The notes beneath the pieces were generated by a model. It was not told the origin of the DNA, made no database searches, and was given only the letters and a program-made list of their open reading frames with translations. A DNA stretch of 64,000 bases from an uncultured Lachnospiraceae bacterium (GTDB lineage: Bacteria; Bacillota; Clostridia; Lachnospirales; Lachnospiraceae), in assembly GCA_934352055.1 (NCBI GenBank), contig CAKRJY010000009.1, positions 34,207 to 98,206 of the forward strand. Direction: 5' to 3'. This document shows positions 18,115 to 63,813 of this stretch, one piece after another. The position numbers were made by a program, and so were the translations under genes. The number at the start of each line of letters is the position of its first letter. Within the stretch, counting starts at the first letter, position 1.

Positions 18115-18116
18115 AC

Positions 18117-21019: not shown

Positions 21020-21039
21020 GTTTTTCCTCCTTATCATAT

Positions 21040-23682: not shown

Positions 23683-23996
23683 GCCTCTCATCCTCTGTTT
23701 CTCGAAAACTACATATCTTCCTACTTGGTATCGTTTCCGTTTTTTCACACATCATCCTATTTGTGTAATTGCGTTATATACAGTTTAGTACATATATTTA
23801 CTAAAGTCAACGAAAACTACACATATGCCTGATAAAAGATAACCGTACAGATAATCATGCCGCAACACATCAAGCCTTGCTTTCCGTCAACAATTATTAT
23901 AAGAATACCACCTGATCTGATTACCGACATATACATCAGTTTCATACCACATAAGAATGATGTGCAACATCCACCCCCTTCTATCATTACAAATTT

Positions 23997-41425: not shown

Positions 41426-41565
41426 TACAATTTCTTCTTTCTTTTTTGTTTCCTATTCATTTTCGCAACTTTAATCATACCAAAAATCTCATTCTTTGTA
41501 TAGAAGCGGTTCACATTTATGCATGCTTTGCATAGGCTATTAAAAACATGTGCAAAGGATTTCTC

Positions 41566-42630
41566 ATGTCAAAAACCATCATTATAGATCCTGGTCACGG
41601 CGGTTTTGACCCCGGTGCCGTCTATGAAAACCGAAAAGAAAAAGACGATAACTTGAGATTAGCCCTGGCTGTCGGTCAGGAATTACAAAACGCAGGATAC
41701 CAGATTATCTACACACGTACCGATGACCGCTATGATTCGCCTTACGATAAAGCGCAGATTGCAAATTCTGCCGGTGGAGACCTGTTCCTATCCTTCCACC
41801 GTAACTTTGCAGAGACGCCAGATCTTTATCGGGGCGTGCAGGCTCTTGTGTATGACAAGAATCCATTGGCGCTGCGCGTTGCTAAAAATGTCAACGAAGA
41901 ATTGGAATCCATCGGTTTTAAAAATCTTGGCATCGAATCCCGCAAAGAACTTGTCGTATTGCGCCGTACATCCATGCCCGCTGTTTTACTGGAAGTAAGT
42001 TTTATTAATTCCGTGGATGACAACCGGTTGTTTGACGAAAAATTTGATGCAATTGCAAATGCCATCGCCACAGGCGTAGAACGTGCACTTCCTATTACCA
42101 AATCCAAAGAGACATCTGCATCTTCTATGCCACCAGACGATACCATGGCTTCTACGCCTATGCAGCAAAATGATACCACGGCTTCTATGTCCATGCAGCA
42201 AAACGATGCCACGGCTTCTATGTCCATGCAGCAAATTGATGCCACGGCTTCTATGTCCATGCAACCGGACGATACCATGGAATCTATGCGCACATCGCAA
42301 AGTTCTGATGCAAACCCTCTCGCTTCTATGCGCCGCTGCTTAACCGATCATCCATGCGATCTGGATCCGCTGCCAAAACCGGAAGACGCTCCACGTTTCT
42401 TATATTATGTACAGGTTGGTCTGTTCCGTTATCCTGAAAATGCCGTTTATCTTATGCAACAGCTTAACGCCCAGGGATACTCTACTGTCTGGAAACGCAT
42501 AGGCGGTCTGATTGCCATCTGGGTCGGTCCGGTTGACAATTTGGATGAAGCGGTTCGTTTACAACGCAAACTGCAAAACGACGGTTACGAGACCTTAATC
42601 GTAACCGATGACTATATTGCACGTAAATAA
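41566..42630 (+). CDS. N-acetylmuramoyl-L-alanine amidase (Amidase_3) with an 11-aa tandem-repeat linker and a C-terminal SPOR domain
   Basis: IIIDPGHGGFDPGA...LSFHRN...AVLLEVSFINS, then a repeat linker, then YYVQVGLFRYPENAVYLMQQLNAQGY...IWVGP...EAVRLQRKLQNDGY (SPOR-like). Confidence 0.8.
   Translation: MSKTIIIDPGHGGFDPGAVYENRKEKDDNLRLALAVGQELQNAGYQIIYTRTDDRYDSPYDKAQIANSAGGDLFLSFHRNFAETPDLYRGVQALVYDKNPLALRVAKNVNEELESIGFKNLGIESRKELVVLRRTSMPAVLLEVSFINSVDDNRLFDEKFDAIANAIATGVERALPITKSKETSASSMPPDDTMASTPMQQNDTTASMSMQQNDATASMSMQQIDATASMSMQPDDTMESMRTSQSSDANPLASMRRCLTDHPCDLDPLPKPEDAPRFLYYVQVGLFRYPENAVYLMQQLNAQGYSTVWKRIGGLIAIWVGPVDNLDEAVRLQRKLQNDGYETLIVTDDYIARK
42118..42279 (+). repeat. five tandem 30-33-bp units encoding A-S-M-S-M-Q-Q-N-D-A-T-like repeats
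   Basis: Units fall at 42118, 42148, 42181, 42214 and 42247. Units 2-4 are nearly identical (gcttctatgtccatgcagcaaaacgatgccacg). Confidence 0.85.
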
Positions 42631-44105: not shown

Positions 44106-46970
44106 TTATAGGGTAAATTTATCGATAAAGACTGCTTTTTCCTGTTTTATATTGTTAAAAGTCTGTTGTATTTTCTGCCGACAGATAGGCTCTTCATACC
44201 AAAGAGACTGTTCCATCAAACCACCTTCCTGCTCCGTTTTTTTGTGATAATTTTCCTCGTCAATGCGCCGGATCACAATTGCGTTGGTATCACAATACTT
44301 TCCCTGGTAGATGCCGCCTTCTGTAATGCCAATCTTAATCAAACGCTCTGTGCGATTTCCAACACCATCTTGTGCAATGTAACGCGCCGTAATATACCCC
44401 ATATCACCCAATTGCAGAAGTACCTCTTTTGCAGGAAGTTCCACCTTCTTTATAAGCGATTCCCCATCTTCTGCATCTGTCATTTTTGCTGTTCGAAGCA
44501 ATTCTTCCTCCATCACACAACCATTTTCTACTTCTTCCTTGGAAAAATAGCGATTATGTGCTTCTATCTGCGGCGGCGCATCCCAGACACTGTAAAAGAC
44601 TACATCTGCGAACTTTCCATTACTGCCGACTTCTTCTTTTCCTTCCCGAAGTAAAGTCATTTCCCACTGCGTAAGGTCAAAAGCTGCGCCGCAGCCTCGT
44701 ACATCTGCATCCCGATAAATTGCATCCGGGCGCATTGCCCAACCCGTATGCGTATATATCTTTTTCTGCTGTTCTTCTTTTTCAAAATTAGCATCGTAGA
44801 CCGTATTTACTTCCTGCCGTTCAAACGTATTTTGCGGCAAAATAACACTTCCCACGCAATCACGCAGCACATAATCCTCGCCTGCACTTTGTGCGTTACC
44901 ACAGATTTGCACATCGCCAACCACCTCATATTGTGCATAGAAACGGTAGTCCCGCACACTTTCTGCGCCTGTAAATGTCCGTTCTGTTCCCACATTCCAC
45001 TCACTTGGATGCGCAAGTGCTTCTCTACTCCATCCCACTTGTCGCAGGGCATAAAAATCCTTGCCGTCATAATAGACTTTTACCGCCGGTGCATACAGTG
45101 CCTGCGTTTCTTTCCAGAATAGCTGCTGTACCTCCGGCAAAGAAAAGGTCACGTGCGCATTGACGATATTCCCATCAAATGTCACATTATAATATTCCGA
45201 TGCTACAATCTGACCAACCGGTGCATTTTCTCCCGTTCCTGCACGCAGAACTGCCGCACGATATCCCTGCCCTTGATTCGTTACCGTCGTTGTATACGCA
45301 TTGGTTAGTCGAAATCTGCTTTTCATCTGATCTGCAGCGTCGCGCGTCGGATGATAAGCACACCATACCACCAATCGCCCCGGCTGCGGTTTTTCTTCTT
45401 CTAACGTAATGGGAATTGCCGTATAATTTCCAGTCAATTCTCCTACCAGTGTCAACTGACGGTCTTTTGCCAGCCAGATTCCACTTCCTGAAATATTAAC
45501 ATCTCCGCTGCATTGATACTCGCCTTTTTGTTCCACATCATACTTTGTGTTTTTCCGGATAACGCCTCCTTTTTGTATTATGCACGCGCCGTCCCCATTT
45601 TCAATGCCTACTTCATTATCCAAAACCTCATTCTCTGACATTGTAATGGTACCGCTATTTATAATCCCGGTTTTGTTGTTTCGAATGTGTGATGTGCGCA
45701 CTTCTCCCACTGGTCGATTAAAAAATCCATTACTGATTCCTGTCGTATTTTCATAAATATCACAATCCTCGAGCAGATAAGCCTTTGCTGCCTGCCCTGT
45801 TGTCACAAATACACCTGCTAAACTCTTCATTAACTTTGTATTTTTTATCTCAATACAATTATTTGCATTTGCCCACAGACCACAGTTTGCTCCCTGACTC
45901 ACACAATCCGCAGCGCTTCCACTTGCACTTCCCATATAGGATATGCCTGCGCCTCCGTACATAAATTTATTTTGATCGTATCGATTGGCATTCGCATCAC
46001 AATGATTCAGATACATAGCCGCATCTATTGTCATAAATCCCCAGGAAGAGTCATACGCCTTGCAATTATCGCAGGAAATCGTAGCTCCGCATCCATCCGT
46101 GTTGCGTACAAAAAAAGCTGCGCCATCGCAATTAAAAGCCACACAATTTCGAAAAACGCCCTTGGCAGAACGTCCCGAGCCATCTTCAGAAACTATATTA
46201 AATCCAGTTCCACCACCTAAATGATCTACACCACTATATCCCACATTCCAGTTATTGCATACGGTCGTATCCGTTCCATACCATGTGGAGTTGATACAAT
46301 CCACCACAGAAGAGCCACCCTCCTGCGCTGTACCATTGTTTCTATGACAGTTTCCATTCAATGTAAGGTTTCCTTCGGTAATTAACGTCGAACCATTTTG
46401 TACCACAATCATAGGTCCGGGATTTTCCATGTCATTGATGAGCTGATGTCCGTTCCCACGGATTGTATAGCTTCCCCCATCTGTAATCATCCAATTCGAT
46501 TTCATCGCAACATCACTTACAAGGATCAACTTTCTTGCGTGATATTGAAACACACCGATAATCATATCCCATTGGGAAGCACATCTCCAGTAGTCTCCAT
46601 CCCAGCCACCACCAGATCGTGCCGCTTGTCTGCTGAGTAAAGCATTCTCTTCTACTTCCAACATACATGCTTCTATCTCTGATTCGCTGTCTTCTTCCTT
46701 TTCTGTCTCATCTTCTCCCAAAGTCACCTTCTCCGACTCATTTTTCTCGGTTTCTGTGTTTTCATTGTTTCCCTTCTCTTTTTCTTGCTTCTTTTCTTCT
46801 ATCTTTTTCTCTTCTTTTTCCTGCACCTCTTCTATGTCTGCATGCCCGCTTTCCTCTATATTATCTATATTCTCAACAGCATTGACCGTAACTGTCTGCC
46901 CTAAAATCATGATGATCATGAAAATTGCTGTTGTCATCTTCTTTATTTTATTTATGTAGTTTCTCTTCAT
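44106..46970 (-). CDS. secreted 954-aa Cys-rich protein with a predicted right-handed beta-helix and C-terminal Ig-like (DUF5011-type) domain; last gene of the filament operon
   Basis: Sec signal (...TVNA/VEN) and an E/K-rich acidic tract. Repetitive N/G/C-rich turns (NGNCHRNNG, NCVAFNCDGAAFFVRNTDGCGATISCDNCKAYD, CDANANRY, ANANNCIEIKNT). C-terminal DAPPQIEAHNRYF...TDAEDG...IAQDGVGN. No sorting signal. GGAGGG RBS. Confidence 0.6.
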   Translation of the reverse strand: MKRNYINKIKKMTTAIFMIIMILGQTVTVNAVENIDNIEESGHADIEEVQEKEEKKIEEKKQEKEKGNNENTETEKNESEKVTLGEDETEKEEDSESEIEACMLEVEENALLSRQAARSGGGWDGDYWRCASQWDMIIGVFQYHARKLILVSDVAMKSNWMITDGGSYTIRGNGHQLINDMENPGPMIVVQNGSTLITEGNLTLNGNCHRNNGTAQEGGSSVVDCINSTWYGTDTTVCNNWNVGYSGVDHLGGGTGFNIVSEDGSGRSAKGVFRNCVAFNCDGAAFFVRNTDGCGATISCDNCKAYDSSWGFMTIDAAMYLNHCDANANRYDQNKFMYGGAGISYMGSASGSAADCVSQGANCGLWANANNCIEIKNTKLMKSLAGVFVTTGQAAKAYLLEDCDIYENTTGISNGFFNRPVGEVRTSHIRNNKTGIINSGTITMSENEVLDNEVGIENGDGACIIQKGGVIRKNTKYDVEQKGEYQCSGDVNISGSGIWLAKDRQLTLVGELTGNYTAIPITLEEEKPQPGRLVVWCAYHPTRDAADQMKSRFRLTNAYTTTVTNQGQGYRAAVLRAGTGENAPVGQIVASEYYNVTFDGNIVNAHVTFSLPEVQQLFWKETQALYAPAVKVYYDGKDFYALRQVGWSREALAHPSEWNVGTERTFTGAESVRDYRFYAQYEVVGDVQICGNAQSAGEDYVLRDCVGSVILPQNTFERQEVNTVYDANFEKEEQQKKIYTHTGWAMRPDAIYRDADVRGCGAAFDLTQWEMTLLREGKEEVGSNGKFADVVFYSVWDAPPQIEAHNRYFSKEEVENGCVMEEELLRTAKMTDAEDGESLIKKVELPAKEVLLQLGDMGYITARYIAQDGVGNRTERLIKIGITEGGIYQGKYCDTNAIVIRRIDEENYHKKTEQEGGLMEQSLWYEEPICRQKIQQTFNNIKQEKAVFIDKFTL

Positions 46971-46985
46971 ATGCCCTCCCCTCGT

Positions 46986-47579
46986 TTACTTAAAAAAAGC
47001 ATAGTAATCTTGTGTCGTCACAACATTTTTGGGAAAAGCTGCCTCTTTCCATTCCGCTTCTGTCATCGACCATCCCACAAACGTCTGACCTTGTTTCACC
47101 GGTGTATCCGGAAGCAAAAAGGAGCTTCCCTCTGCCACCTCATATGCCTGCCATAGCTTTCCATCCACAAAAAAGGATACGGTACAATTCTCTTTTTCCT
47201 TTTTTTGATCAATCACTGCCGTCTGTGTCACACTGCAGGTTCCCTTTTTCCCATTCGGATGTAAAAAGGTCTCCGTCACACGCACGGACAACAGACCTTT
47301 TTCCATATCCATTCCGTAAATCTCCACCTGAATACCTCCAGATGTTTTCATTCCCTTTAGCTGTTTCTTCAAACGTGCACAAAATTGTTTTTGCCATTTG
47401 GCTTCATCCACGTTTTCCTGTCCCTTTTCCCATGTTTCTTTCATCGTTGCATCTACTGCCAATGTCACTGCTTCTCTAAGCGTATGCTCCCTGTCAACAC
47501 GCCCTTCCACCGTCAAAACCATCACAACAGACAATACCAGCAGCGCACAACTTACGATTCCATAGATAATGTATTTCAT
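46986..47579 (-). CDS. pilin-like protein (197 aa) with an N-terminal hydrophobic helix and a C-terminal Listeria-Bacteroides (Flg_new) repeat
   Basis: MKYIIYG-IVSCALLVLSVVMVLTV. C-terminal VSFFVDGKLWQAYEVAEGSSFLLPDTPVKQGQTFVGWS...DYYAFF. Confidence 0.55.
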   Translation of the reverse strand: MKYIIYGIVSCALLVLSVVMVLTVEGRVDREHTLREAVTLAVDATMKETWEKGQENVDEAKWQKQFCARLKKQLKGMKTSGGIQVEIYGMDMEKGLLSVRVTETFLHPNGKKGTCSVTQTAVIDQKKEKENCTVSFFVDGKLWQAYEVAEGSSFLLPDTPVKQGQTFVGWSMTEAEWKEAAFPKNVVTTQDYYAFFK

Positions 47580-47596
47580 AGCTCATTTTCCTCCCC

Positions 47597-48076
47597 TCAG
47601 TCTTCGACGCGTATGTATAAATAGCCGTATTCTGTCGCCCCAGACGCATCCCACAGTTCTACCTTAGCGCGATACACACCGCTATGTGAAAACACATACA
47701 TTTCCTGTTGTTCTTCTGTTATAATCTTATCCACACTGGTGCCGTCTTTCCTATCCTCCATGTCAAGAATCCTGACAAACGCTTCTTGTCCGTCTGCGTC
47801 CGTCACCACAAGCATATCTTTTATGCTGTATGCTTTGTTCGTATGCAGCGTATGACTGCACACCGTTGGAACGGCACGCCGCTTAATTGCATGTAATACA
47901 TCTGTAGACTGCAACACAGGTTCTGTTACATCCATCTGCTGTTTTATGTGTCTGCTTAATACTTCCCGCATTTCTCGTGCATCTGCATGTTGCATGTAGT
48001 AAAATGCTGCAAGCAGCATGCCACAAATCATAACTGCCAGACATGTTTTCCCATAGTTTCTGATAACCTCCGTCAT
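47597..48076 (-). CDS. pilin-like protein (159 aa)
   Basis: MTEVIRNYG-KTCLAVMICGMLLAAFYY shares the N-terminal signature of the small ORFs. It is followed by a soluble domain. Confidence 0.55.
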   Translation of the reverse strand: MTEVIRNYGKTCLAVMICGMLLAAFYYMQHADAREMREVLSRHIKQQMDVTEPVLQSTDVLHAIKRRAVPTVCSHTLHTNKAYSIKDMLVVTDADGQEAFVRILDMEDRKDGTSVDKIITEEQQEMYVFSHSGVYRAKVELWDASGATEYGYLYIRVED

Positions 48077-48085
48077 GTATCCCCC

Positions 48086-48226
48086 TTATCCCATCATCTG
48101 TAATAGTGCCAACATTAAACTTTCTCCCATCAGCCCCCGCAAATCCCCCCAGAACAAACCCACCAAAAGAACGGCTGTTACAACTGCAAATAACATTTCT
48201 CCATATTCTTCCAACACATCTTTCAT
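48086..48226 (-). CDS. small Flp-like pilin candidate P3 (46 aa), not in the ORF track
   Basis: MKDVLEEYGEMLFAVVTAVLLVGLFWGDLRGLMGESLMLALLQMMG. AAGGGGG RBS. 9-nt gap to the next gene. Confidence 0.55.
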   Translation of the reverse strand: MKDVLEEYGEMLFAVVTAVLLVGLFWGDLRGLMGESLMLALLQMMG

Positions 48227-48247
48227 GTCTTTTCTGCCCCCTTTTTC

Positions 48248-48352
48248 TTATATACTAAGCATCCCAATAGTTCTCAAAAAGATGCCACAGATTCCGCCGC
48301 CAACCACGGCATAAAATAATGCCATTCCATAATCCTGCATAATTTCCTTCAT
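48248..48352 (-). CDS. small Flp-like pilin candidate P2 (34 aa)
   Basis: MKEIMQDYGMALFYAVVGGGICGIFLRTIGMLSI. These are the last 34 codons of track ORF 48248..48520. An AAAGGAA RBS follows directly after the stop of the 111-aa gene. Confidence 0.5.
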   Translation of the reverse strand: MKEIMQDYGMALFYAVVGGGICGIFLRTIGMLSI

Positions 48353-48365
48353 AACATTTCCTTTC

Positions 48366-48701
48366 TCACCATAATTCTGCATGGAGCACTCTCGTATTTT
48401 CCAAATCAAAAAATGGCATTCCATATACATACGTGAGCGCAACATTTCCGTATGCAGCCCTCTCTTTTCCTGCAGGTGTACTCCATTCCACCTGCAAATC
48501 ATAATTTTGTGTTTTTGCATCCGCCTGACACGCCTCTACCACATTCTTGGCATAATGCGATGCTTCCATGCGTTCCACACAGGAAGATAAAAAAGAATCT
48601 GCATTACGCGATGCAACCGATGCCGACGTAATTCCAATCCCGGTTACCGTCAAAAGCAGCAAACAAAATATTCCAATAAAAGACTTTACAATAACTTCCA
48701 T
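48366..48701 (-). CDS. pilin-like / TadE-like protein (111 aa)
   Basis: MEVIVKSFIG-IFCLLLLTVTGIGI, then a soluble domain. GGGAGG RBS. Confidence 0.5.
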   Translation of the reverse strand: MEVIVKSFIGIFCLLLLTVTGIGITSASVASRNADSFLSSCVERMEASHYAKNVVEACQADAKTQNYDLQVEWSTPAGKERAAYGNVALTYVYGMPFFDLENTRVLHAELW

Positions 48702-48713
48702 AATCCTCCCTTT

Positions 48714-50051
48714 CTATACACCAAGCGCACTTGTTGCCATCATGGCATAAAAGAGCATTCCCATATCCACAAGCATCTTCGCGCCACCCGTCAGCTGCGG
48801 TGCTAAAAACAGCGCATAGAGTCCTCCGAGCGCATCCTCATTTTTCATCTTTTGCGCCTGGTCTAACAGTAATTGATTTCGCCGTATAATGTCACTGATC
48901 TGATTATTCGCATTTCCTCCCGTTCCTTCTGATAATGCATAAAGCATTTTCATCGACGATTGCACCTCCGGCAAAGCATATTCCTGTAAAAATTCCAGAT
49001 ATGGCTCCATATCGGTAGGTCGCAGCTGCAGCTTTTGTATCAATTCACGCAAAGCCGGCTTCATCAATACCGGTGCCTCATCATAGGATTCCATAATCGC
49101 CACCTGTACATTTTCACTCTGTAACAGTAAAGACACTTCCAGTAACCACTGTGGAAACATCTTTTGCAGAGCACGCGATACATTTTTCTTTGCAATTCGC
49201 GTACCTAACTCTGCATGTTTTTTCTCTTCACTACGTTTTACTTTTTCATATTGGCGCAGCAGTTCTTTTTCATCGTATGTTTCATCCATACTTTCCATAG
49301 AAAGTTTGCGATCAGCTACATAAAAAATCCAAATATCTAATAGCAACGTTAAAAGCGTCACCACCTTTACAATCGTAAATCCAGTAATCGATAATGATAC
49401 GCGTTCTGCCACATAGACAAAGACGGAACACAGCAAAAGCGAAACCAGCACAGAAATCAAAATCTGTGTTCGTTTTCGTTTCTTTTCTTTTAACAGCTCA
49501 TACGAGCGGTCTGCCCACATTCGTCTGGCATCTAGCATCAAGCGGATTGCCTCTCCATATTCGCCACCTTTCTCCTCTACCTGCAGCGCAAAACGATGTA
49601 TCATTGCCACATGATGTATCGGATATTCCTGCTCAATCATTGCCAATGCCTTTTTCTCAACATGATCTTCATCATAGGTATCCTCAATATAGGCAATGGC
49701 TTCCTGAATGCGCGTATGCATCATACCGTCTGCAAACAATTTCTCTACATCTTTTAATGTCACAAGAATTTTTCCTGATTTCTGAAAAGAATATAAAAAT
49801 TGTTCCATGTAACTATTGATTTCCACAAACTGTCTCTGCCCATAGCGATTGCGGTACAAATTGCGCAGAAAAAACGGAAATAAACATGCGCACCACAGAC
49901 AAAGAATGAGCAGATACATGCGTTCTAATCGGAAAAACTTTCCGCACAATAAGGCAAATGCTACCGCCATCCCATACATCAAAATGCTTCTTTTTACCGA
50001 AAAGACATAGCCATATCTTTTCAATTCATCCCACAGCAACTTTGGTTTCAT
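48714..50051 (-). CDS. polytopic platform protein with two T2SSF-like halves (TadB-TadC-fusion / FlaJ-like)
   Basis: 445 aa. Two repeats of a cytoplasmic helical bundle plus TM pair. The second half reads FPQWLLEVSLLLQSENVQVAIMES, like the T2SSF LPxxLxxLxxxLxAG..L..A motif. The start overlaps the ATPase gene by 26 nt. Confidence 0.55.
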   Translation of the reverse strand: MKPKLLWDELKRYGYVFSVKRSILMYGMAVAFALLCGKFFRLERMYLLILCLWCACLFPFFLRNLYRNRYGQRQFVEINSYMEQFLYSFQKSGKILVTLKDVEKLFADGMMHTRIQEAIAYIEDTYDEDHVEKKALAMIEQEYPIHHVAMIHRFALQVEEKGGEYGEAIRLMLDARRMWADRSYELLKEKKRKRTQILISVLVSLLLCSVFVYVAERVSLSITGFTIVKVVTLLTLLLDIWIFYVADRKLSMESMDETYDEKELLRQYEKVKRSEEKKHAELGTRIAKKNVSRALQKMFPQWLLEVSLLLQSENVQVAIMESYDEAPVLMKPALRELIQKLQLRPTDMEPYLEFLQEYALPEVQSSMKMLYALSEGTGGNANNQISDIIRRNQLLLDQAQKMKNEDALGGLYALFLAPQLTGGAKMLVDMGMLFYAMMATSALGV

Positions 50052-51063
50052 AATACGTTCCCCTCCTTTGCTCCAAATTATCTCCGATCAGTTCTCCGTC
50101 CTCGACAATACTCTCTACACGGTTAATGCCATCTTCTCGCGTAAAGAAACACACCTGATCAATAAAACGACGTATGTGCTGTCGTCCCGCAGTATCCGTT
50201 TCACTCCGCCGCCTCACCATAATCCCCACATCAATAAAGGAATAAATATCATTTTCCATGCGTCCGGCATCTCGTTCCGAGCCTGCCATATTAAGCATCC
50301 GATCTGGAATTTTTCTCACATCCGAAGTATGCAGTGTCGTGATACCATGTACGCCTGTACTTAGACATTCCATCAGATAAACTACTTCTTTCGAACGTGT
50401 CTCCGACAGCATAATCCACTTTGGATTCAAACGCAGACACGTCTTAATTGCCTGTGTGTAATCCATCTGCCGATTCACACGCAATTCTAAGCAATCATGC
50501 GACGGATGTAAGCTTTTAAAATGCCATTCCATCGTATCTTCAATCGTAATCACACGTTCGTCCCTAGGAATAAATCCGGACAAGAACTTGCATAATTCGG
50601 TTTTGCCCGCTCCCGGTTCTCCCACTACAACGATATTTTTGTGTTCTTCTACGCAATGCAATAACAGGTCTAACACTTCTTTACTGCAATAGGCATCTGC
50701 AATCATCTGTCTTTCATCCAGTCGCACATATGGAAGCGATTTACGGATACAAATGCTGCGCCCACTCATACAGACAGACTCATGTACAATCGTAATACGC
50801 AGACTTGCTGTCTCCGCTTCTAATATGGGATTCTGGCGGTTAAATGCTTTACTGACACCATTTGCTACACGTCCTGTAAACTGATCAATAAAACTTTCCG
50901 TCAACTGTAAATCCGGACATACATGGCGACAATTGTTACTATCTGTAAGCCACACCTCCCGCCCGTTATAATCCACATCTGTAATATCATCATCAATGAT
51001 GTACGGATATAATGGCCCGAAAAAATCACCTGTTTTATCTAAAAAAAGCATCTGTTCTGCCAT
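50026..51063 (-). CDS. TadA/CpaF/VirB11-type secretion ATPase (T2SSE superfamily), short form
   Basis: 345 aa. Walker A VVGEPGAGKT. Also ERVITIEDTMEW, LRLNPKWIMLSETRSKE (Walker B/Asp box region) and STGVHGITTLHTSD (His box). Confidence 0.75.
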   Translation of the reverse strand: MAEQMLFLDKTGDFFGPLYPYIIDDDITDVDYNGREVWLTDSNNCRHVCPDLQLTESFIDQFTGRVANGVSKAFNRQNPILEAETASLRITIVHESVCMSGRSICIRKSLPYVRLDERQMIADAYCSKEVLDLLLHCVEEHKNIVVVGEPGAGKTELCKFLSGFIPRDERVITIEDTMEWHFKSLHPSHDCLELRVNRQMDYTQAIKTCLRLNPKWIMLSETRSKEVVYLMECLSTGVHGITTLHTSDVRKIPDRMLNMAGSERDAGRMENDIYSFIDVGIMVRRRSETDTAGRQHIRRFIDQVCFFTREDGINRVESIVEDGELIGDNLEQRRGTYYETKVAVG

Positions 51064-51072
51064 ATTTCCCCC

Positions 51073-51237
51073 TTATAGTGCATTTTTTGTAAAGAAATAC
51101 GTTAGTAACTGTGCAAATGCCTTTCCCACAACACTGTTTTGATCACTACCAATCAGTGTCGAAACCAAAATCAACATCGCTCCAATCACAACGACGGTAA
51201 TCATTGCCGGTCCATATTCTTTTATAATATCTTGCAT
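51073..51237 (-). CDS. small Flp-like pilin candidate P1 (54 aa), first gene of the operon; not in the ORF track
   Basis: MQDIIKEYGPAMITVVVIGAMLILVSTLIGSDQNSVVGKAFAQLLTYFFTKNAL. Its stop lies 9 nt before the ATPase ATG, inside that gene's GGGGGA RBS. Confidence 0.55.
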   Translation of the reverse strand: MQDIIKEYGPAMITVVVIGAMLILVSTLIGSDQNSVVGKAFAQLLTYFFTKNAL

Positions 51238-51345
51238 AATTTGTTATCCTTTCTTTTCCTGCAAAAGGACATAAAGCAAATATCTGCGGAATAAGTAGGC
51301 GAATCGCCTTTGAAAAAAGATGCCATCCAAAAGATGGTGAGATTG

Positions 51346-51374
51346 ATACTAACAGCACTGCTAACATTTTGCAA
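51346..51374 (-). promoter_or_regulatory. possible promoter of the filament operon
   Basis: Minus strand: TTGCAA, 17 nt spacer, TAGTAT. About 110 nt upstream of P1. Confidence 0.3.
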
Positions 51375-51425
51375 GTACTTTTTGAATTGTTTTAAAAGTT
51401 CGAAAACTATGAATTTTTATTTCCC

Positions 51426-51454
51426 TTTACAGAGCTTAGCATATCGCCTATAAT
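51426..51454 (+). promoter_or_regulatory. sigma-A promoter of ppiB
   Basis: TTTACA, 17 nt spacer, TATAAT. About 40 nt upstream of the ATG. Confidence 0.55.
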
Positions 51455-51495
51455 ACGTTTCACAGAGATTTTTTAGAAAGACGAGGTATTTTCAT

Positions 51496-56506: not shown

Positions 56507-56523
56507 TATGTGGTTCTGTTTTC

Positions 56524-56916
56524 TTATGAATACAATTCCTTATAAATAGCATCCAGATCATAGTCTGGTGCATATTTCTTGCCAACATCATAAACTCTTT
56601 GGACTTCGGCAACATCCATATCAAAGAAATCTGCTATCTGACTCGTACTTTTTCCTCGGTTCATCTGTTGCATGATTACAGAAATCACATTCTGTCTGCG
56701 CCCTGCTTTGAGTCCCTCTGCTCGTCCTTCTTCGCGTCCTTCCGCACGTCCTTCTTCCAGACCCTGATTATGGTATATTCTCTTCAGTAGTTCTTTTTCT
56801 TCATATGCTCTCATATAACTCAGCCCTACCTTTCTGTTATCCTTTATCTGAGATACCATGCTCTGTAATTCCCGCAAGTCTTCCGTCACTGCGTTTTCGT
56901 CTGTGGATTCTTCAAA
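56524..56916 (-). pseudogene. 5'-truncated tandem duplicate of the adjacent Rpn-like gene (C-terminal third only)
   Basis: Encodes FEESTDENAVTEDLRELQSMVSQIKDNRKV...YDLDAIYKELYS, near-identical to residues about 200-321 of the 56945..57910 product, plus an extra EGRAEGREEGRAEG insertion. No upstream coding sequence. Confidence 0.7.
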
Positions 56917-56944
56917 TCCCTACGGCATCTACTTACTGCATGTC

Positions 56945-57910
56945 TTATGAATACAATTCCTTATAAATGGCATCCAGATCATAGTCTGGTGCATATTTCT
57001 TGCCAACATCATAAACTCTTTGGACTTCAGCAACATCCATATCAAAGAATTCCGCTATCTGACTCGTACTTTTTCCTCGGTTCATCTGTTGCATAATCAC
57101 AGAAATCATCTGCTGTCTGCGTCCTGCTTTGAGTCCTGCTTCGCGTCCTTCTTCCAGACCCTGATTATGGTATATTCTCTTCAGTAGTTCTTTTTCTTCA
57201 TATGCTCTCATATAACTCAGCCCTACCTTTCTATTATCCTTTATCTGAGATACCATGCTCTGTAATTCCCGCAAGTCTTCCGTCACTGCGTTCTCGTCTG
57301 TGGACTCTTCAAAATATGTAAGAAATTTCCGTAAATCTTCAGAGTAATTCCCAACACTACCCTTCGTATATAAGAAAATCGTCATTGCTCCATCCTCATA
57401 TTCCATATCCGGTTGCTCGACACAGTAATTCTTAATTGTGTAAACCATCCGGTTATATCCAAAGGGATCAAATGGGGTAATGAAAATCACATATACTTTT
57501 TTTAGTTTCCGATAATCCTCTCCACTGGGAAGCGCTGCATTATCAATCTTCGCATGGTAAAATCGAACTCGCTTTGGGAGTCCTTCTACTGATATTGTAT
57601 CATGATTTTTCTCAGGTTCAATATCAAAAATCGAAGAATCATCCTCGATAATCTGCGCCATTTCTTCTGTTTTTCCATCTGGGCTCACCGTCTCTTCAAT
57701 ATACACATCCAATCTGGCGCCGTGCATATCGGTGTCCACTCCATAAAACACCTTTTGCGGTGTGATCTGAATGTCTGCTATTTCTTTTCCTAAAATAAGT
57801 TTAATCAACTTCCTTGAAAAAGGAATACCTACGTCTGGGTCCGTCATCATTGCACCAAATAAAAAGTTGTCAATCAGACTTAAGTCCTGCAAAGTTTTCT
57901 TTTGCTTCAT
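56945..57910 (-). CDS. Rpn-family (PD-(D/E)xK, TIGR01784-like) recombination-promoting nuclease / putative transposase
   Basis: 321 aa. N-terminus LIDNFLFGAMM... and GARLDVYIEE...IFDIEPEK nuclease-like motif. C-terminal EEGREAG repeats typical of this family. Confidence 0.65.
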   Translation of the reverse strand: MKQKKTLQDLSLIDNFLFGAMMTDPDVGIPFSRKLIKLILGKEIADIQITPQKVFYGVDTDMHGARLDVYIEETVSPDGKTEEMAQIIEDDSSIFDIEPEKNHDTISVEGLPKRVRFYHAKIDNAALPSGEDYRKLKKVYVIFITPFDPFGYNRMVYTIKNYCVEQPDMEYEDGAMTIFLYTKGSVGNYSEDLRKFLTYFEESTDENAVTEDLRELQSMVSQIKDNRKVGLSYMRAYEEKELLKRIYHNQGLEEGREAGLKAGRRQQMISVIMQQMNRGKSTSQIAEFFDMDVAEVQRVYDVGKKYAPDYDLDAIYKELYS

Positions 57911-58085
57911 AATGCCTCTCTTTCCGGCAGTACAAGATAATAGAATCGACCTGTCTGCCTAAATATAAAATTGTGTGTATACATTCATGGAAACATTGGT
58001 CGAACTGACCGGAGAATTCCTAGAAAGTGCATCTAGCATAACAAAGTGGCTCGTAAATTGCAAGTCACCTGAAAAAAAATCTCAA

Positions 58086-58131
58086 CAAAAAGAGGTCGCA
58101 GGGAAATGATTTCTCAATTCCCTACGACCTC
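58086..58131 (-). terminator. terminator of the left flagellin gene (member of the GAGGTCGCAGGGA hairpin family)
   Basis: Minus strand: gaggtcgtaggga-N14-tccctgcgacctc followed by tttttgtt. Confidence 0.65.
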
Positions 58132-58200
58132 ATAAGTTTGTGCTCATTTATTACAAATCAGCATCGCAAATCATCAATAGATATTTACGAAAAACCTAGA

Positions 58201-59586
58201 TTACTGAAGTAATGAAAGAACACCCTGTGTAGACTGGTTAGCCTGAGCAAGCATTGACTGTCCTGCCTGTGTAAGAATGTTATTCTTAGAGTACTTAACC
58301 ATTTCATCAGCCATATCTGTATCGCGGATACGTGATTCAGCAGATGTTGTGTTTTCAACAACGTTATCCAAGTTGTCGATTGTGTGCTCAAGACGGTTCT
58401 GGATAGCACCAAGGCTAGATCTCTGATCTGAAACCTTCTGTAATGCATCGCTGATAGCATCGATTGCATATGTTGCAGCCTTACCTGAATCATCAGATAC
58501 GTTTAATCCCTGAATTCCTAAGTATGCAGAATTCATTGTCTCGATATTTACATTAATCTTATTTGTCATGTCTGCATCAGAACCTACATGAAGATTGAAG
58601 GACAACTGCTGTGCTGCATCTGCTTTTCCTTTAGTGATTTCAAATGTTACACCCGTATCCTTTGCATAAGTTCCAGCTTGAATTGTTGCTGCTGTTTTTG
58701 TTGCACCAATGTTGTTAGCTGCTGTCAGCTCAGCTGTCATAAGTCCAACTGCCTTCGCTGCAGAAATAACAGATGAATCTGACTTATCAACACCTGTTGC
58801 ATCAAAATCTGCTACTGTCATAGATTTTCCGCCAACTTCTACTGTTGCACCAGCTTTAACAAGCTTTTCTAATTCAGATTTTTTATACTTGAAATCAGCT
58901 TCGCTATGATTAGCATCTTCCACCAAGGTGTATTCTTGTCCATTAATCTTTGCTTTTACTGTTCCATCATAAGTATTTCCAAGTAATGCCTTTGCATCTG
59001 CTTCTGTTGCACCAATTGTATAGTTCTTTCCACCAATTGTAACAGCTTTTCCTGGATCAAGTGCACCAGCAGCAACCTTGAATGTTCCTGTTGTTTCGCC
59101 ATCTGTTAAAGTTCCCTTTAATCCAGCATCATGAGCCTTCATGTACACTTCTTTTGTTGCAGCATTATCATCACCCTTCAACAAGTATGTCTCGTTGAAC
59201 TTTGTTGTTTCAGCAACACGATCGATTTCTGTTGTTAACTGCTCAATCTCTGACTGGATAGCATCTCTATCTGTCTGTGAGTTTGTTCCGTTAGAAGCCT
59301 GTACTGAAAGTTCGTTCATTCTCTGAAGCATTGAGTGAACTTCTGTCAAAGCACCTTCAGCTGTCTGTACTGCAGATACACCATCCTGTGCGTTTGTAGA
59401 AGCCTGATCAAGACCACGAATCTGCTTACGCATCTTTTCAGAAATAGAAAGACCTGCTGCATCATCTGCTGCGCGGTTAATTCTATAACCTGAAGAAAGT
59501 TTCTCTGTTGACTTAGCCTGCTGACCTGCTGTAATGTTAAGCATTCTTGAGGCATTTGCTGCCTGCATATTGTGTTGAACAACCAT
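58201..59586 (-). CDS. flagellin (461 aa)
   Basis: MVVQHNMQAANASRMLNITAGQQAKSTEKLSSGYRINRAADDAAGLSISEKMR... N-terminal D0/D1 region and C-terminal ...LGAIQNRLEHTIDNL...SMLAQANQSTQGVLSLLQ. Confidence 0.95.
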   Translation of the reverse strand: MVVQHNMQAANASRMLNITAGQQAKSTEKLSSGYRINRAADDAAGLSISEKMRKQIRGLDQASTNAQDGVSAVQTAEGALTEVHSMLQRMNELSVQASNGTNSQTDRDAIQSEIEQLTTEIDRVAETTKFNETYLLKGDDNAATKEVYMKAHDAGLKGTLTDGETTGTFKVAAGALDPGKAVTIGGKNYTIGATEADAKALLGNTYDGTVKAKINGQEYTLVEDANHSEADFKYKKSELEKLVKAGATVEVGGKSMTVADFDATGVDKSDSSVISAAKAVGLMTAELTAANNIGATKTAATIQAGTYAKDTGVTFEITKGKADAAQQLSFNLHVGSDADMTNKINVNIETMNSAYLGIQGLNVSDDSGKAATYAIDAISDALQKVSDQRSSLGAIQNRLEHTIDNLDNVVENTTSAESRIRDTDMADEMVKYSKNNILTQAGQSMLAQANQSTQGVLSLLQ

Positions 59587-59594
59587 AATATTTA

Positions 59595-59644
59595 CCTCCG
59601 TGTGTTTGTTTGGTTTGTCCCCATGAAAAATCCTTTTTTCATGG
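59595..59644 (-). promoter_or_regulatory. flagellin 5' leader: 10-bp hairpin with a GGA loop plus a GGA-containing SD (CsrA-type sites)
   Basis: Minus strand: ccatgaaaaa-AGGA-tttttcatgg (59621-59644) and acaCGGAGGt SD (59595-59600). Confidence 0.45.
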
Positions 59645-59695
59645 TTTTGATTAATAGTTCCTTTATAATCAACCCGCGCCTAGGTTCGCAGGTAA

Positions 59696-59725
59696 ATTAT
59701 CTTTTTTGTTGGGGATTGTTGTGAA
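59696..59725 (-). promoter_or_regulatory. candidate promoter inside the left repeat arm
   Basis: Minus strand: TTCACA, 18 nt spacer, GATAAT. The base before the -10 is A here and C in the right copy (aaaAGATAAT vs aaaCGATAAT). Confidence 0.25.
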
Positions 59726-59729
59726 CCAC

Positions 59730-59753
59730 GTAACAAAATAGATATTGTGTTTC
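59730..59753. promoter_or_regulatory. degenerate 24-bp palindrome at the inner end of the left arm (candidate recombinase site)
   Basis: gtaacaaaata-ga-tattgtgtttc. Nine of eleven arm positions are complementary. Homologous to the perfect site at 60758-60781. Confidence 0.4.
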
Positions 59754-59920
59754 ATCCCTTACACCATATATTTCGGACATTACTCTAAATACTTAACCCC
59801 CAAAATATAAATATTTTTCCAAAAGTTGAATGTATTTCTAAATGCTGCTTCTAAATTTTACTTTTTCACTCAACCGTTAATTATGCAAACAAATATATAC
59901 CTGCTATCTAGGATTCCTTA

Positions 59921-59929
59921 ATTATAGCA
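59921..59929 (-). promoter_or_regulatory. extended -10 promoter element (TGCTATAAT) in the unique core, facing the left flagellin gene
   Basis: Minus strand reads catGcTATAAT. No good -35, which is usual for TGn promoters. The surrounding DNA is AT-rich, so a chance match is possible. Confidence 0.3.
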
Positions 59930-60169
59930 TGATATTTGAATTTGAATATCCATTATTAGGGCTTTATTTGACCTCAGAACAGAATCTTGATTGTTAGACG
60001 TATTTTCAGTTGGATTTTAGTTTTTCATTCAATGATTCGGGCATGCGAACGAAATCTTGCGAACATTCCGTTTCTATTTTCTGAAATACTTTGCAAGAGC
60101 ATGTGGCAGAAGCGCGGGGAACCGCCATGGTGGAGTATAATAGCCTGCAAAAACCAGGAGGTTATTACC

Positions 60170-60748
60170 ATGAATAAAGCACAACCCATAAAAAATGCTA
60201 TGCAATTAGAAACTTTTAAAAATTATTACTATAGAGTGCATTATCATCCCAGAAATCACATGTTTATCACGATGGGATTAAATACAGCACTGCGCGTATC
60301 AGACTTGCTTCGCCTCAAATGGTGTGATGTGTTCGATTATGACAATGTATGTTATCGAGAGCATGTGTTTTTGGTTGAACAAAAGACGCAGAAGAAATCC
60401 TATATTTATATAAATGAAAGGGTGGCAGAGACACTTCTATGGTATCAAAATACTTATGCGTATATGCCGCAACCGCAGGAATACTTGTTTTCAAACGAAA
60501 ACGGGACTGCTATTTCGCGTGTAAGCGCATACCGCATTGTGCGTCTGGCAGCAGAAAACTGTCATATTGAGGGCGTAATCAGTCCACATTCTCTTCGTAA
60601 AACTTTTGGCTATCAAGCCTGGATAAAAGGCGTTTCGCCGGTTCTATTAATGGATATTTATCAACATTCCTCATTTGAAATCACAAAACGATACCTAGGT
60701 ATTGAGCAGGATGAACGAGATTCTGTTTTCCGTGAAGTCATTATCTAG
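60170..60748 (+). CDS. small (192 aa) tyrosine site-specific recombinase, catalytic domain only (FimB/FimE-sized)
   Basis: Start at MNKAQPIK, 7 nt after AGGAGG. Catalytic set present: LRVSDLLRL (Arg I), EQKTQKK (Lys), HSLRKTF (His-x-x-Arg), HSSFEITKRYL (His...Tyr). Confidence 0.85.
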   Translation: MNKAQPIKNAMQLETFKNYYYRVHYHPRNHMFITMGLNTALRVSDLLRLKWCDVFDYDNVCYREHVFLVEQKTQKKSYIYINERVAETLLWYQNTYAYMPQPQEYLFSNENGTAISRVSAYRIVRLAAENCHIEGVISPHSLRKTFGYQAWIKGVSPVLLMDIYQHSSFEITKRYLGIEQDERDSVFREVII

Positions 60749-60757
60749 CAGACATGT

Positions 60758-60781
60758 GTAACACAATATCTATTGTGTTAC
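60758..60781. promoter_or_regulatory. perfect 24-bp palindrome at the inner end of the right arm (candidate recombinase site)
   Basis: GTAACACAATA-tc-TATTGTGTTAC, with 11-bp perfect arms. It begins 10 nt after the recombinase stop codon. Confidence 0.45.
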
Positions 60782-60785
60782 GCGG

Positions 60786-60815
60786 TTCACAGCAATTCCC
60801 TACAAAAACGATAAT
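60786..60815 (+). promoter_or_regulatory. candidate promoter inside the right repeat arm
   Basis: TTCACA, 18 nt spacer, GATAAT. The extended sequence aaaCGATAAt also resembles a sigma-28 -10 (CGATAA), but I see no TAAA -35. Confidence 0.25.
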
Positions 60816-60868
60816 TTACCTGCGAACCTAGGCGCAGGCTAATTATAAAGACACTTTATTAATCAAAA

Positions 60869-60919
60869 CCATGAAAAACGGATTTTTCATGGGGACAAAC
60901 CAAAACAAACACACGGAGG
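60869..60919 (+). promoter_or_regulatory. flagellin 5' leader: 10-bp hairpin with a GGA loop plus a GGA-containing SD (CsrA-type sites)
   Basis: ccatgaaaaa-CGGA-tttttcatgg (60869-60892) and acaCGGAGGt (60914-60919). Confidence 0.45.
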
Positions 60920-60927
60920 TAAATATT

Positions 60928-62439: not shown

Positions 62440-62507
62440 TCTAGGTTTTTCGTAAATATCTTTTGATGATTTGCGATGCTGATTTGTAATAAATGAGCAC
62501 AAAACAA

Positions 62508-62550
62508 GAGGTCGCAGGGATTTAAAAATCAAATCCCTGCGACCTCTTTT
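62508..62550 (+). terminator. terminator of the right flagellin gene (GAGGTCGCAGGGATTT hairpin family)
   Basis: gaggtcgcagggattt-N7-aaatccctgcgacctc followed by tttt. Confidence 0.7.
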
Positions 62551-62564
62551 AATTGGTATGAAAG

Positions 62565-62664
62565 CAAGTTGGTATGGGTATGAAGTCAAGAAAAACAAGC
62601 CTAATACCCATAGAATCAAGTTGGCATGGGTATGAAGTTAAGAAAACCAAGTCTAATACCCATA
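62565..62664 (+). repeat. two tandem 52-bp-period units, each a hairpin (tatgggtat-N21-atacccata)
   Basis: caagttggtatgggtatgaagtcaagaaaaacaagcctaatacccata / caagttggcatgggtatgaagttaagaaaaccaagtctaatacccata. Present only in the right arm. Confidence 0.75.
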
Positions 62665-62843
62665 CAAACATATTTTTCTCCAAGTGACTTGCAATTTACA
62701 AGCCATTTTGTTATGCTAGATGCACTTTCTAGGAATTCTCCGGTCAGTTCGACCAATGTTTCCATGAATGTATACATACAAATTTATATTTTTAGGCAGA
62801 CAGGTCGATTTTACTATCTGGTACTGCCGGAAAGAGAGGCATT

Positions 62844-63797: not shown

Positions 63798-63813
63798 GAC
63801 ATGCAATAAATTA

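Follow-up and report, generated by a model that had tools for sequence, protein, structure and literature searches.

A conserved operon of Lachnospiraceae with the gene content of a putative type IV filament machine, and its relatives on Gram-positive conjugative plasmids

Processing of class III signals by a peptidase of the A24 family is treated as the defining step of every type IV filament (TFF) system. The question of whether such a machine might do without this step is raised by an operon at positions 44106-51237 (minus strand) of a 64,000-nt stretch of DNA from an uncultured Lachnospiraceae bacterium (assembly GCA_934352055.1, contig CAKRJY010000009.1, positions 34,207 to 98,206), which we refer to as the window. 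The operon encodes a T2SSE-family ATPase, a polytopic membrane protein (the platform candidate), six proteins that share an N-terminal signature (P1, g111, P2, P3, g159 and g197) and a large secreted protein, g954. A preliminary description, made from the DNA sequence, had read it as a TFF variant. The ATPase, the T2SSF-like N-terminal half (N-half) of the platform candidate and the small N-terminal-helix proteins argue for that reading, while the oddities ascribed to the platform and the ATPase were overstated. We give about an even chance to the proposal that the operon encodes a divergent TFF-type machine, in which P1 and five minor subunits would form a filament or pseudopilus with no peptidase encoded at the locus and g954 would be displayed as an adhesin or enzyme.

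Results and Discussion

Operon Organization and Conservation

The operon comprises nine tightly packed, co-directional open reading frames (ORFs), all lying where the preliminary description had placed them and each preceded, as it had claimed, by a GGAGG-like ribosome-binding site (RBS). In the direction of transcription these are P1, the ATPase, the platform candidate, g111, P2, P3, g159, g197 and g954. The ATPase and platform genes overlap by 26 nt, and the remaining gaps are, in order, 9, 12, 13, 21, 9, 17 and 15 nt.

Conservation of the operon was analyzed in 78 loci, obtained from a scan of one genome per species. Nearly all of these loci are labeled Lachnospiraceae or carry the name of one of its genera (Roseburia, Agathobacter, Pseudobutyrivibrio, Lachnobacterium, Pullilachnospira), and a few are labeled only to order level or as "bacterium." The order P1-ATPase-platform-g111-small ORFs-g197-large protein was found in ∼70 of the 78 Lachnospiraceae genomes and never changes. 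Specifically, phmmer searches with the window proteins as queries located the platform in 77 loci, g111, directly after the platform gene, in 73, the ATPase in 71, g197 in 64 and a P1 homolog upstream of the ATPase in 61; a strict search for the P1 N-terminal motif recovered it in 49 of the 64 loci with enough upstream sequence. A recognizable g954 homolog is present in 24 of the 78 loci, although in many loci the gene after g197 encodes some large secreted protein. The small ORFs, whose conservation the preliminary description had left to be checked, are kept in both position and sequence across these related loci. In many loci the operon is flanked by a peptidyl-prolyl isomerase (PPIase) gene upstream and a CNNM/CorC gene downstream. 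The constant gene order and these shared flanks indicate that the operon is a stably inherited chromosomal feature and not a mobile island.

An exhaustive profile search (E < 1e-3) showed that the platform family comprises 844 clusters at 50% identity. The closest genome is the metagenome-assembled genome (MAG) UMGS881, labeled uncultured Pseudobutyrivibrio (96% platform identity), and the platform of Roseburia lenta NSJ-9 shares 76% identity. In a Lachnobacterium MAG (locus L067, 6616-16662) the ATPase-platform-g111-g197 set occurs twice in tandem, the second copy being more divergent (platform E 3e-36).

The ATPase

The ATPase gene (50026-51063, minus strand) encodes a 345-aa T2SSE-family protein with Walker A, Asp box, Walker B and His box motifs. 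GEPGAGKT, ITIEDT, LRLNPKWIMLSETRSKE and TGVHGITTLHTSD, which the preliminary description had quoted, are all present. The Pfam search that it had called for matched T2SSE at 9.9e-21, and together with the four motifs (read as GEPGAGKT, ITIEDT, WIMLSETR and GITTLHTSD) this identifies a T2SSE hexameric ATPase of the type expected in a TFF system.

Comparison with curated NCBIfam models gave the highest score to VirB11 (TIGR02788, 123.5 bits; cutoff 250), followed by TadA-type (TIGR03819, 99.7 bits; cutoff 373), FlaI (78 bits; cutoff 550), TrbB (75 bits) and ComGA (52 bits; cutoff 300), with PilT (43 bits), GspE (35 bits), PilB (30 bits) and SpoIIIAA (18 bits, E 1.2e-3; spore_III_AA cutoff 281) lower still. 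All of these scores lie far below the respective cutoffs. Among protein structures in the PDB, the ATPase matched the VirB11 protein HP0525 with 78 bits, CpaF with 71, Archaeoglobus GspE with 64.5 and FlaI with 41.5. By these comparisons the ATPase appears to belong to the VirB11/TadA/FlaI group, outside all the named families of that group. Membership in the SpoIIIA, ComG, PilB/PilT, GspE or FlaI families was ruled out on the NCBIfam scores. The preliminary description had also counted the ATPase as anomalously short; this does not hold, as 345 aa is normal for VirB11-type enzymes and VirB11 is the best-scoring curated model.

The Platform Candidate

The 445-aa protein encoded at 48714-50051 (minus strand) is a polytopic membrane protein for which two T2SSF-like halves had been proposed. 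The window protein itself has no match in Pfam or NCBIfam. Its family does: when 71 diverse members were scanned singly, T2SSF was by a wide margin the commonest Pfam family (18/71, best E 1.3e-4), and in the members that were inspected all T2SSF matches lay in the N-half and covered nearly the full domain model. We also used hhalign to align the halves with four canonical TadB/TadC proteins from the tad loci of Alkaliphilus and Rhizobium, with the reversed alignment as control. The N-half matched TadB/TadC with a probability of 93% and a P of 2.9e-7 over 201 columns, compared with a P of 9e-4 for the reversed control. The C-terminal half (C-half) gave a P of 0.009 against TadB/TadC, and the alignment of N-half with C-half as an internal repeat gave a P of 0.005. 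Because both values are weaker than that of the reversed control, we claim neither T2SSF status for the C-half nor an internal duplication. Thus, of the two halves proposed, the N-half can be considered T2SSF-like, and the C-half is treated as being of similar architecture only.

The AlphaFold2 model of the platform candidate (predicted local distance difference test [pLDDT] 81.7) is all-helical. From the N terminus it shows two transmembrane (TM) helices, a cytoplasmic helical domain, a central pair of TM helices, another helical domain in the cytoplasm and, at the C terminus, a last TM helix. Profiles of the protein found no match among PDB sequences. The fusion of the platform into a single gene had been taken as an archaeal-style trait. 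PilC, GspF and ComGB are also single-gene platforms, so the arrangement is not an archaeal peculiarity, and the two halves correspond to a pair of plasmid proteins, p38 and p39, as described below.

Related Modules on Conjugative Plasmids

A tblastn search of 72,556 plasmids with the ATPase revealed the closest relatives of the operon, which the preliminary description had missed: modules with a "putative VirB11" that lie among the transfer genes of conjugative plasmids of the pLS20, pXO2 and pZB18 types. The top matches were "CpaF/VirB11 family" proteins with 30-35% identity and E values down to 3e-40, encoded on conjugative plasmids of Bacillus (the pLS20 family and pXO2), Enterococcus (pZB18) and Listeria; proteobacterial CpaF and VirB11 proteins reached only 1e-16 to 1e-9 in the same search. 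Consistent with this, a hidden Markov model (HMM) of the Lachnospiraceae ATPase family matched p37 of pDSYZ with 216 bits. The modules, located at 8382-12407 of pDSYZ (L085), 7579-12688 of pZB18 (L086) and 4631-9768 of pXO2 (L091), contain in order the ATPase gene, two membrane-protein genes (267-277 and 235-249 aa), a gene for a 120-aa single-TM protein, and one to three genes for single-TM proteins of 47-50 aa. This small gene is present in three tandem copies in pDSYZ. In pXO2 and pZB18 a gene of 49-50 aa also precedes the ATPase gene, as P1 does in the window, and a TrbC/VirB2-family gene follows the module.

The two membrane proteins of the plasmids correspond to the two halves of the platform candidate. 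Positions 1-218 of the platform HMM matched p38 and positions 286-405 matched p39, collinearly and with 26.6 bits each, and a weaker collinear match was obtained in pZB18; by hhalign, the N-half matched p38 with a P of 2e-7. On the strength of this collinearity, the 445-aa protein is interpreted as a fusion of two genes that are separate on the plasmids. An HMM of the g111 family, searched among the ORFs of two plasmid loci, found its best match, full-length but weak, in the 120-aa p40 of pZB18 and pDSYZ (E values of 6e-4 and 0.09). Homology to a p36-p41-type module of pLS20 therefore covers the ATPase, p38 plus p39 and, weakly, p40, while the small proteins are alike in size and architecture only. 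Taken together, these similarities suggest that the Lachnospiraceae operon shares ancestry with the plasmid ATPase-p38-p39-p40-small-TM module.

The plasmid small proteins begin MLDQNTDR(S/M)(W/Y)W.IGAV, the octapeptide being identical between Bacillus and Enterococcus plasmids, in contrast to the M-x5-EYG start of the Lachnospiraceae proteins. These counterparts (MLDQNTDRSWWMIG...) have a conserved polar N terminus and, like the window proteins, no class III signal; they lack a Gly at the helix boundary and thus cannot be class III substrates. The modules also resemble the operon in having a large surface adhesin gene nearby (Tie and a SpaA-like protein in the case of pLS20-type modules). They differ from it in that their platform is split and in that they lie in transfer operons with VirD4, VirB4, VirB6/8 and relaxase genes. 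The window operon has none of these: it is chromosomal, lies between PPIase and CNNM genes and is accompanied by no transfer genes.

No function has been published for these modules. In the paper describing the pLS20 family, genes 36-41, which have counterparts on pXO2/pAW63, pZB18 and Listeria plasmids, are listed as "putative VirB11" and "unknown," and Gram-positive conjugative elements are said to form no conjugative pili (PMC8557374). A review of the Bacillus cereus group mentions only a VirB11 homolog (PMC9673590). As the plasmid module is itself uncharacterized and is associated with T2SSF, the homology assigns no different known role to the operon.

The Small Pilin-Like Proteins

Where the preliminary description had named three pilin candidates, we find six proteins with a shared N-terminal signature. 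P1 (51073-51237), g111 (48366-48701), P2 (48248-48352), P3 (48086-48226), g159 (47597-48076) and g197 (46986-47579), all on the minus strand, have the start M-x5-[E/Q]-Y-G, or one close to it, and after it a hydrophobic helix. P1 (54 aa) starts MQDIIKEYG and continues with a hydrophobic helix of ∼20 residues and an amphipathic tail. P2 (34 aa; MKEIMQDYG) and P3 (46 aa; MKDVLEEYG) have the motif and hydrophobic helix, and g159 (159 aa; MTEVIRNYG) has a TM helix and a domain of ∼120 aa. The starts of g111 (111 aa; MEVIVKSFIG, a TM helix and a small domain) and g197 (197 aa; MKYIIYG and a TM helix) are related to these. The usual TFF complement is one major and five minor subunits. By motif and architecture, P1 is the candidate major filament subunit, g111, the possible p40 counterpart, a candidate minor subunit, and g159 a candidate minor subunit with a globular head.

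A search for M-x(3-7)-[EDNQST]-[YFW]-G followed by a hydrophobic run in the operon zones of the 78 loci yielded 194 ORFs. The exact spacing M-x5-[EDNQST]-[YF]-G was found in 183 of these, with Tyr in 171 of the 183 and Gly in every one, and the consensus is M-[KQ]-[ED]-I-[IMFL]-x-[EQ]-Y-G. The motif is strongly concentrated at the operon: 191 of the 1613 operon-zone ORFs carry it, compared to 8 of the 8671 ORFs elsewhere in these loci. In most loci, P1 lies upstream of the ATPase gene and two or three further motif ORFs (∼33, 47 and 150-165 aa) follow g111. P2 orthologs of 32-37 aa and g159 orthologs of 140-190 aa with the same N-terminal motif occupy the same positions in many loci; P3 orthologs of 45-50 aa do likewise, and many of them end in WGNGGC. 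P1 is the most conserved of the six motif proteins, with Y8, G9, F41, L44 and F48 invariant in 26 diverse homologs.

The small ORFs are real genes under purifying selection, which is strongest for P1. Ratios of nonsynonymous to synonymous substitution rates (dN/dS), calculated against orthologs at 60-84% nucleotide identity, are 0.05-0.14 for P1 and ∼0.2-0.27 for P2, P3 and g111. The ORFs of P1, P3 and g159 are maximal, with no upstream start codon possible. The 34-aa form of P2 sits within a maximal ORF of 90 aa and gene callers read 44 aa, but an RBS 5 nt upstream and the orthologs support the 34-aa form as the likely product; in locus L008 this form is itself the maximal ORF.

Few domain assignments could be made. 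Residues 133-191 of g197 match Flg_new (the Listeria-Bacteroides repeat) with an E of 5.6e-6 and 26.8 bits, just below the Pfam cutoff of 27.0, and g159 matches no Pfam family. DUF4244 was matched by one of the 26 P1 homologs (E 0.005). DUF4320 was considered for g111 and not adopted: the match was marginal (E 0.07) and recurred in just one of 26 family members. The p40 of pXO2 gave a similarly marginal value (E 0.028).

Processing of the Subunits

As the preliminary description had noted, the N-terminal segments of the pilin candidates are very short and acidic: six residues precede EYG, and the nine-residue segment has a net negative charge. E-Y-G is, as generally known, also the consensus of the mature Flp N terminus (Flp motif in PMC3244431). 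Two readings of the segment were compared. In the first, the motif corresponds to the mature Flp N terminus (xxxxEYG, with Glu5 and Tyr6) plus two extra residues, and the subunits would be unprocessed. In the second, MQDIIKEYG would be a nine-residue leader cut after Gly9. We give the first more weight than the second.

The second reading would make the operon an ordinary Tad/Flp-type pilus, in which an A24 peptidase encoded elsewhere (PilD, ComC or TadV) removes a short class III leader and leaves a subunit without Glu5. In its favor, Gly9 is invariant (183/183), and the sole profile alignment of the P1 family to a genuine Flp, that of Alkaliphilus (10 bits), sets KEYG on the leader ...KEEKG, with K-E-Y on K-E-E-K. 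The coincidence of P1 Gly9 with the −1 cleavage Gly of this Clostridial Flp favors processing by a peptidase encoded elsewhere. Com and some type IV pilus systems do rely on a peptidase whose gene lies apart from the pilin genes (general knowledge; PMC3244431, table), and a related conjugative element has an A24-like gene beside a T2SSE ATPase gene. Against cleavage, conservation is concentrated ahead of Gly9 (I4, E7 and Y8), and positions +1 to +5 after it are variable and without Glu, which is the reverse of normal prepilins. The ORFs begin at the motif Met, with no charged leader, and this Met is the first possible start codon in 135 of the 194 motif ORFs, so that there is usually no room for a leader. 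In P1, only six residues precede EYG and none is the Gly expected from the Flp processing motif G/XXXXEY. No A24 peptidase gene was found near the locus, whether in the window or alongside its syntenic counterparts in other genomes, and the plasmid small proteins have no boundary Gly to cut after. Given this evidence we regard an ordinary pilus served by a distant peptidase as unlikely.

Absent Components and Comparison with Known Systems

The preliminary description had reported no prepilin peptidase, TadZ or PilMNO in the 64 kb, and none was found. Pfam and NCBIfam searches of the nine operon proteins gave no match to Peptidase_A24, TadZ/CpaE, TadE, Flp_Fap, PilM/N/O or secretin. Peptidase_A24 was also not matched among the multi-TM ORFs scanned in the window, which represent other families, for example, VanZ, MFS, GGDEF and a GerE-type regulator. 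The remaining multi-TM ORFs are the operon platform, annotated CNNM, CbiQ and ECF-S genes, one antisense ORF and a 2430-aa ORF, and no other multi-TM ORF of ≥100 aa in the window has an A24-like size. Gene-caller Pfam marks within ±10 kb (L001) included no A24, TadZ, TadE, Flp, PilMNO or secretin functions, and phmmer with the A24, TadZ and TadE proteins of Alkaliphilus, as single-sequence queries of low sensitivity, detected no homolog in either the window or the 78 loci; for TadZ and PilMNO the absence from the window was judged by these marks and phmmer searches only. Neither a peptidase nor TadZ, whose presence just outside the window would have pointed to a canonical Tad locus, is encoded next to ∼70 of the syntenic loci.

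The locus does not score as a canonical Tad, Com, type IV pilus or archaeal system, and its ATPase reached no curated family cutoff. Among the described systems that come close are the Tad/Flp pili (Aggregatibacter tad, Caulobacter cpa and Clostridial loci such as Alkaliphilus pB6464, L089). Similar to these, the operon has a VirB11/TadA-group ATPase that lacks the N-terminal extensions of the PilB type, a membrane partner of T2SSF type (judged by the N-half against TadB/TadC), ∼50-aa two-helix subunits with E-Y-G at the start of the hydrophobic helix, and further subunits with the same type of N terminus. A genuine Clostridial tad locus used for comparison encodes, in a row, a TadZ-like ATPase, CpaF, two T2SSF proteins, Flp, an A24 peptidase and TadE. 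Unlike such loci, the operon has no leader before the motif, no TadV/A24, TadZ/CpaE, CpaB/RcpC or TadE/F/G (by Pfam) and no Flp_Fap prepilin; its platform is fused and not split into TadB and TadC, its ATPase scores below the TadA/CpaF cutoffs, and it includes the gene for a beta-helix protein. The "no-Flp" Clostridial tad loci (Imam et al. 2011) are not the same, since tadV, tadZ and rcpC are retained there.

ComG of the Bacillota, also a monoderm system, resembles the operon in its ATPase, its single two-half platform gene, its one major and several minor subunits and a peptidase encoded outside the operon. It differs in that the operon ATPase is not ComGA-like, the subunits lack class III leaders, ComEA, ComEC and ComC are unlinked, and a large secreted protein is included. 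The archaeal pili and archaellum (FlaI/FlaJ, EppA-dependent) share the broad ATPase group, the single-gene platform and, if the subunits are cut at Gly9, the absence of Glu5; the ATPase, however, falls far below the FlaI cutoff, there is no FlaK/PibD/EppA, FlaH, FlaG or FlaF, and the closest relatives are bacterial plasmid genes. Two systems in which the ATPase could have had a different role, a conjugative type IV secretion system (T4SS) and a SpoIIIA-type sporulation channel, were not assigned: the scores for VirB11 and spore_III_AA remain below cutoff, neither the operon nor the ±10-kb annotation contains VirB4, VirD4 or relaxase domains, the flanks consist of housekeeping genes in many genera, and the other operon proteins have no SpoIIIA-family match. 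We found no account of the operon in the literature searched, and none that treats it or the plasmid module as a TFF-like machine.

The Terminal Protein g954

The last gene of the operon (44106-46970, minus strand) encodes a 954-aa protein that had been described as a secreted, non-anchored beta-helix protein, and the present data bear this out. The protein has a Sec-type signal peptide, no LPXTG-like motif and an acidic, Glu/Lys-rich disordered linker at ∼35-118 (27 Glu in 84 residues). The AlphaFold2 model (overall pLDDT 77.4) contains a right-handed beta-helix at ∼120-540, mostly with pLDDT >90, and beta-sandwich domains at ∼560-880. Foldseek matched the model to AlgG (3e-6), AlgE6, polygalacturonases, phage tailspikes, the Lactobacillus reuteri SRRP adhesin and pertactin. 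Only 16 homologs were found, some of which carry an N-terminal Peptidase_S8 (subtilase) domain together with Flg_new and Big/Ig-like domains.

One homolog (P0404) adjoins another T2SSE ATPase in a conjugative element, accompanied by a probable A24 peptidase. This locus and the adhesins beside pLS20-type modules point to a recurring association of such ATPase modules with a large surface protein. The element itself (L087, metagenome contig SHIW14-1 scaffold_43, 4255-21582) provides another, more remote example of a T2SSE ATPase paired with a protein of the g954 type, here too within a transfer region. Its genes encode, in order, a relaxase, a 77-aa protein, the T2SSE ATPase (424 aa), a 154-aa Peptidase_A24-like protein (E 3e-4, below cutoff), a 308-aa protein, the 1193-aa subtilase and beta-helix g954 homolog, YdjM, a 71-aa TM protein, a VirB3/4-like protein, VirB4, NlpC/P60 and VirD4.

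These features bear on a further explanation, namely a pseudopilus similar to that of type II secretion, in which a short piston within the wall pushes folded g954 through the thick peptidoglycan into the medium. A Sec signal peptide without a wall anchor, the terminal position of g954 in the operon, the large secreted protein that follows g197 in many loci, and a fold like those of AlgG, polygalacturonase and tailspike depolymerases are all consistent with such export, and the subtilase domain in some homologs suggests enzymes over adhesins. On the other hand, the large gene shows little conservation from locus to locus, or is a different gene (24/78), as one would sooner expect of an adhesin or a variable tip; the relatives on plasmids lie beside adhesins, and we know of no TFF-type secretion system in monoderms. 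A dedicated secretion machine for g954 seems to us quite improbable.

A Proposed TFF-Type Machine

The analysis establishes the gene content, the conservation, the homologies and the g954 fold; filament formation, a role for P1 as major subunit, unprocessed subunits and the role of g954 are inferred. In the proposed TFF-type machine, a VirB11/TadA-like hexameric ATPase would act on a polytopic platform formed by fusion of p38- and p39-type halves. Together they would pull small membrane-embedded subunits out of the bilayer, stacking them to form a filament or a short pseudopilus, with P1 as the major subunit and g111, P2, P3, g159 and g197 as minor or initiating subunits. The subunits would be made without a class III leader, translation starting at the motif Met so that the product resembles the mature Flp N terminus, which would account for the lack of a prepilin peptidase at the locus. 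The g954 protein would be exported by Sec, remain unanchored to the wall and most likely be retained on the filament (possibly by the Flg_new domain of g197), where it could serve as a carbohydrate-binding adhesin or enzyme. In the Lachnospiraceae this machinery would be encoded by a stable chromosomal operon free of DNA-transfer genes.

Several observations weigh against this proposal. The filament is a prediction from gene content, and the assignment of the small proteins as pilins is one of motif and architecture: none of 26 P1 homologs matched Pfam Flp_Fap, and the P1 family matched no pilin in the PDB, its best match being SecG, a hydrophobic helix. A P1 profile likewise showed no sequence similarity to the p41-type proteins of the plasmids, the two being alike in size and architecture only. 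The C-half of the platform candidate is not demonstrably T2SSF, as its matches fall below the reversed-sequence control, and Foldseek comparison of the platform model with the PDB gave only nonsense helical matches (TM-score ∼0.18). Finally, the absence of A24 holds only for the window and the surroundings of the syntenic loci, and the invariant Gly9 and the Alkaliphilus Flp alignment described above count for processing. There is only a slim chance that the operon instead encodes a non-filament membrane complex (a mating-pair remnant or a complex for DNA uptake or an envelope process, with the small proteins as stable membrane subunits): the nearest relatives do lie in conjugative transfer regions under the annotation VirB11, P1 has no sequence-level proof as a pilin and the platform model has no structural match, but VirB4, VirD4, relaxase and VirB6/8 are missing from the window operon and the syntenic loci, partners resembling T2SSF characterize TFF systems and not T4SSs, the NCBIfam scores for SpoIIIAA, ComGA and VirB11 are far below cutoff, and a mobile element in decay would hardly keep a stable chromosomal position in different genera.

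More tentatively, the operon and the plasmid modules may represent one branch of the TFF superfamily with leaderless, peptidase-free subunits, present in the chromosomes of gut and rumen Lachnospiraceae and in the "orphan VirB11" modules of pLS20-, pXO2- and pMG1-like plasmids; this broader claim is possible, and we hold it doubtful. If it were true, Gram-positive conjugative plasmids, now said to make no pili, would assemble a pilus-like structure. A conserved system that skips the A24 step would also change the definition of type IV filaments, and it would raise the question of how its subunits are oriented and primed. The plasmid homology suggests a role for the genes listed as "putative VirB11" and "unknown" and bears on the mating of Gram-positive plasmids in liquid, and the homology to pLS20 genes 37-40 provides a tractable test bed in Bacillus subtilis. 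The operon is widespread, and the genera in which it occurs, Roseburia, Agathobacter, Pseudobutyrivibrio and Lachnobacterium, are abundant producers of butyrate about whose machinery for surface adhesion little is known. It connects these abundant commensals of the gut with a module that is unexplained in otherwise well-studied Gram-positive plasmids.

Other Features of the Window

The presumed promoter and leader of the operon, designated by position only, is the 258-nt interval between P1 and the divergent PPIase gene (51238-51495, minus strand). A sigma-70 scan of this interval found no convincing minus-strand promoter, a promoter and terminator scan showed no enrichment over shuffled sequences and no clear operon promoter or terminator, and Rfam searches of the window and of the P1 leader returned neither a riboswitch nor any other family. 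A terminator-like hairpin (CCATCTTTTGGATGG followed by a T-run) lies within the presumed leader at 51323-51337 (minus strand), ∼90 nt upstream of the P1 start.

The window has a G+C content of ∼40%, and its other genes are housekeeping genes of flagellated Lachnospiraceae. An ORF of 2430 aa at 23997-31289 (minus strand), starting MDYFKLTTPQRNIWNLQKYY..., is a possible non-ribosomal peptide synthetase gene and is followed by several genes for large secreted or membrane proteins (12430-23748). At 41548-42630 (plus strand), an Amidase_3/SPOR-domain protein has a degenerate tandem peptide repeat (ASMSMQQNDATASMSMQQ...) in its linker. An inverted duplication spans 56522-63809, with arms of ∼3.2 kb that are 88-95% complementary and a center of ∼1 kb containing an integrase-like ORF (59987-60748). 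Each arm carries a gene for a 317-321 aa protein (MKQKKTLQDLSLIDNFLFGAMM...) and a flagellin gene (58201-59586, minus strand; 60871-62439, plus strand), and the GC skew changes sign at ∼60 kb of the window. The duplicated region may be a recombinase-associated duplicated or invertible flagellin locus.

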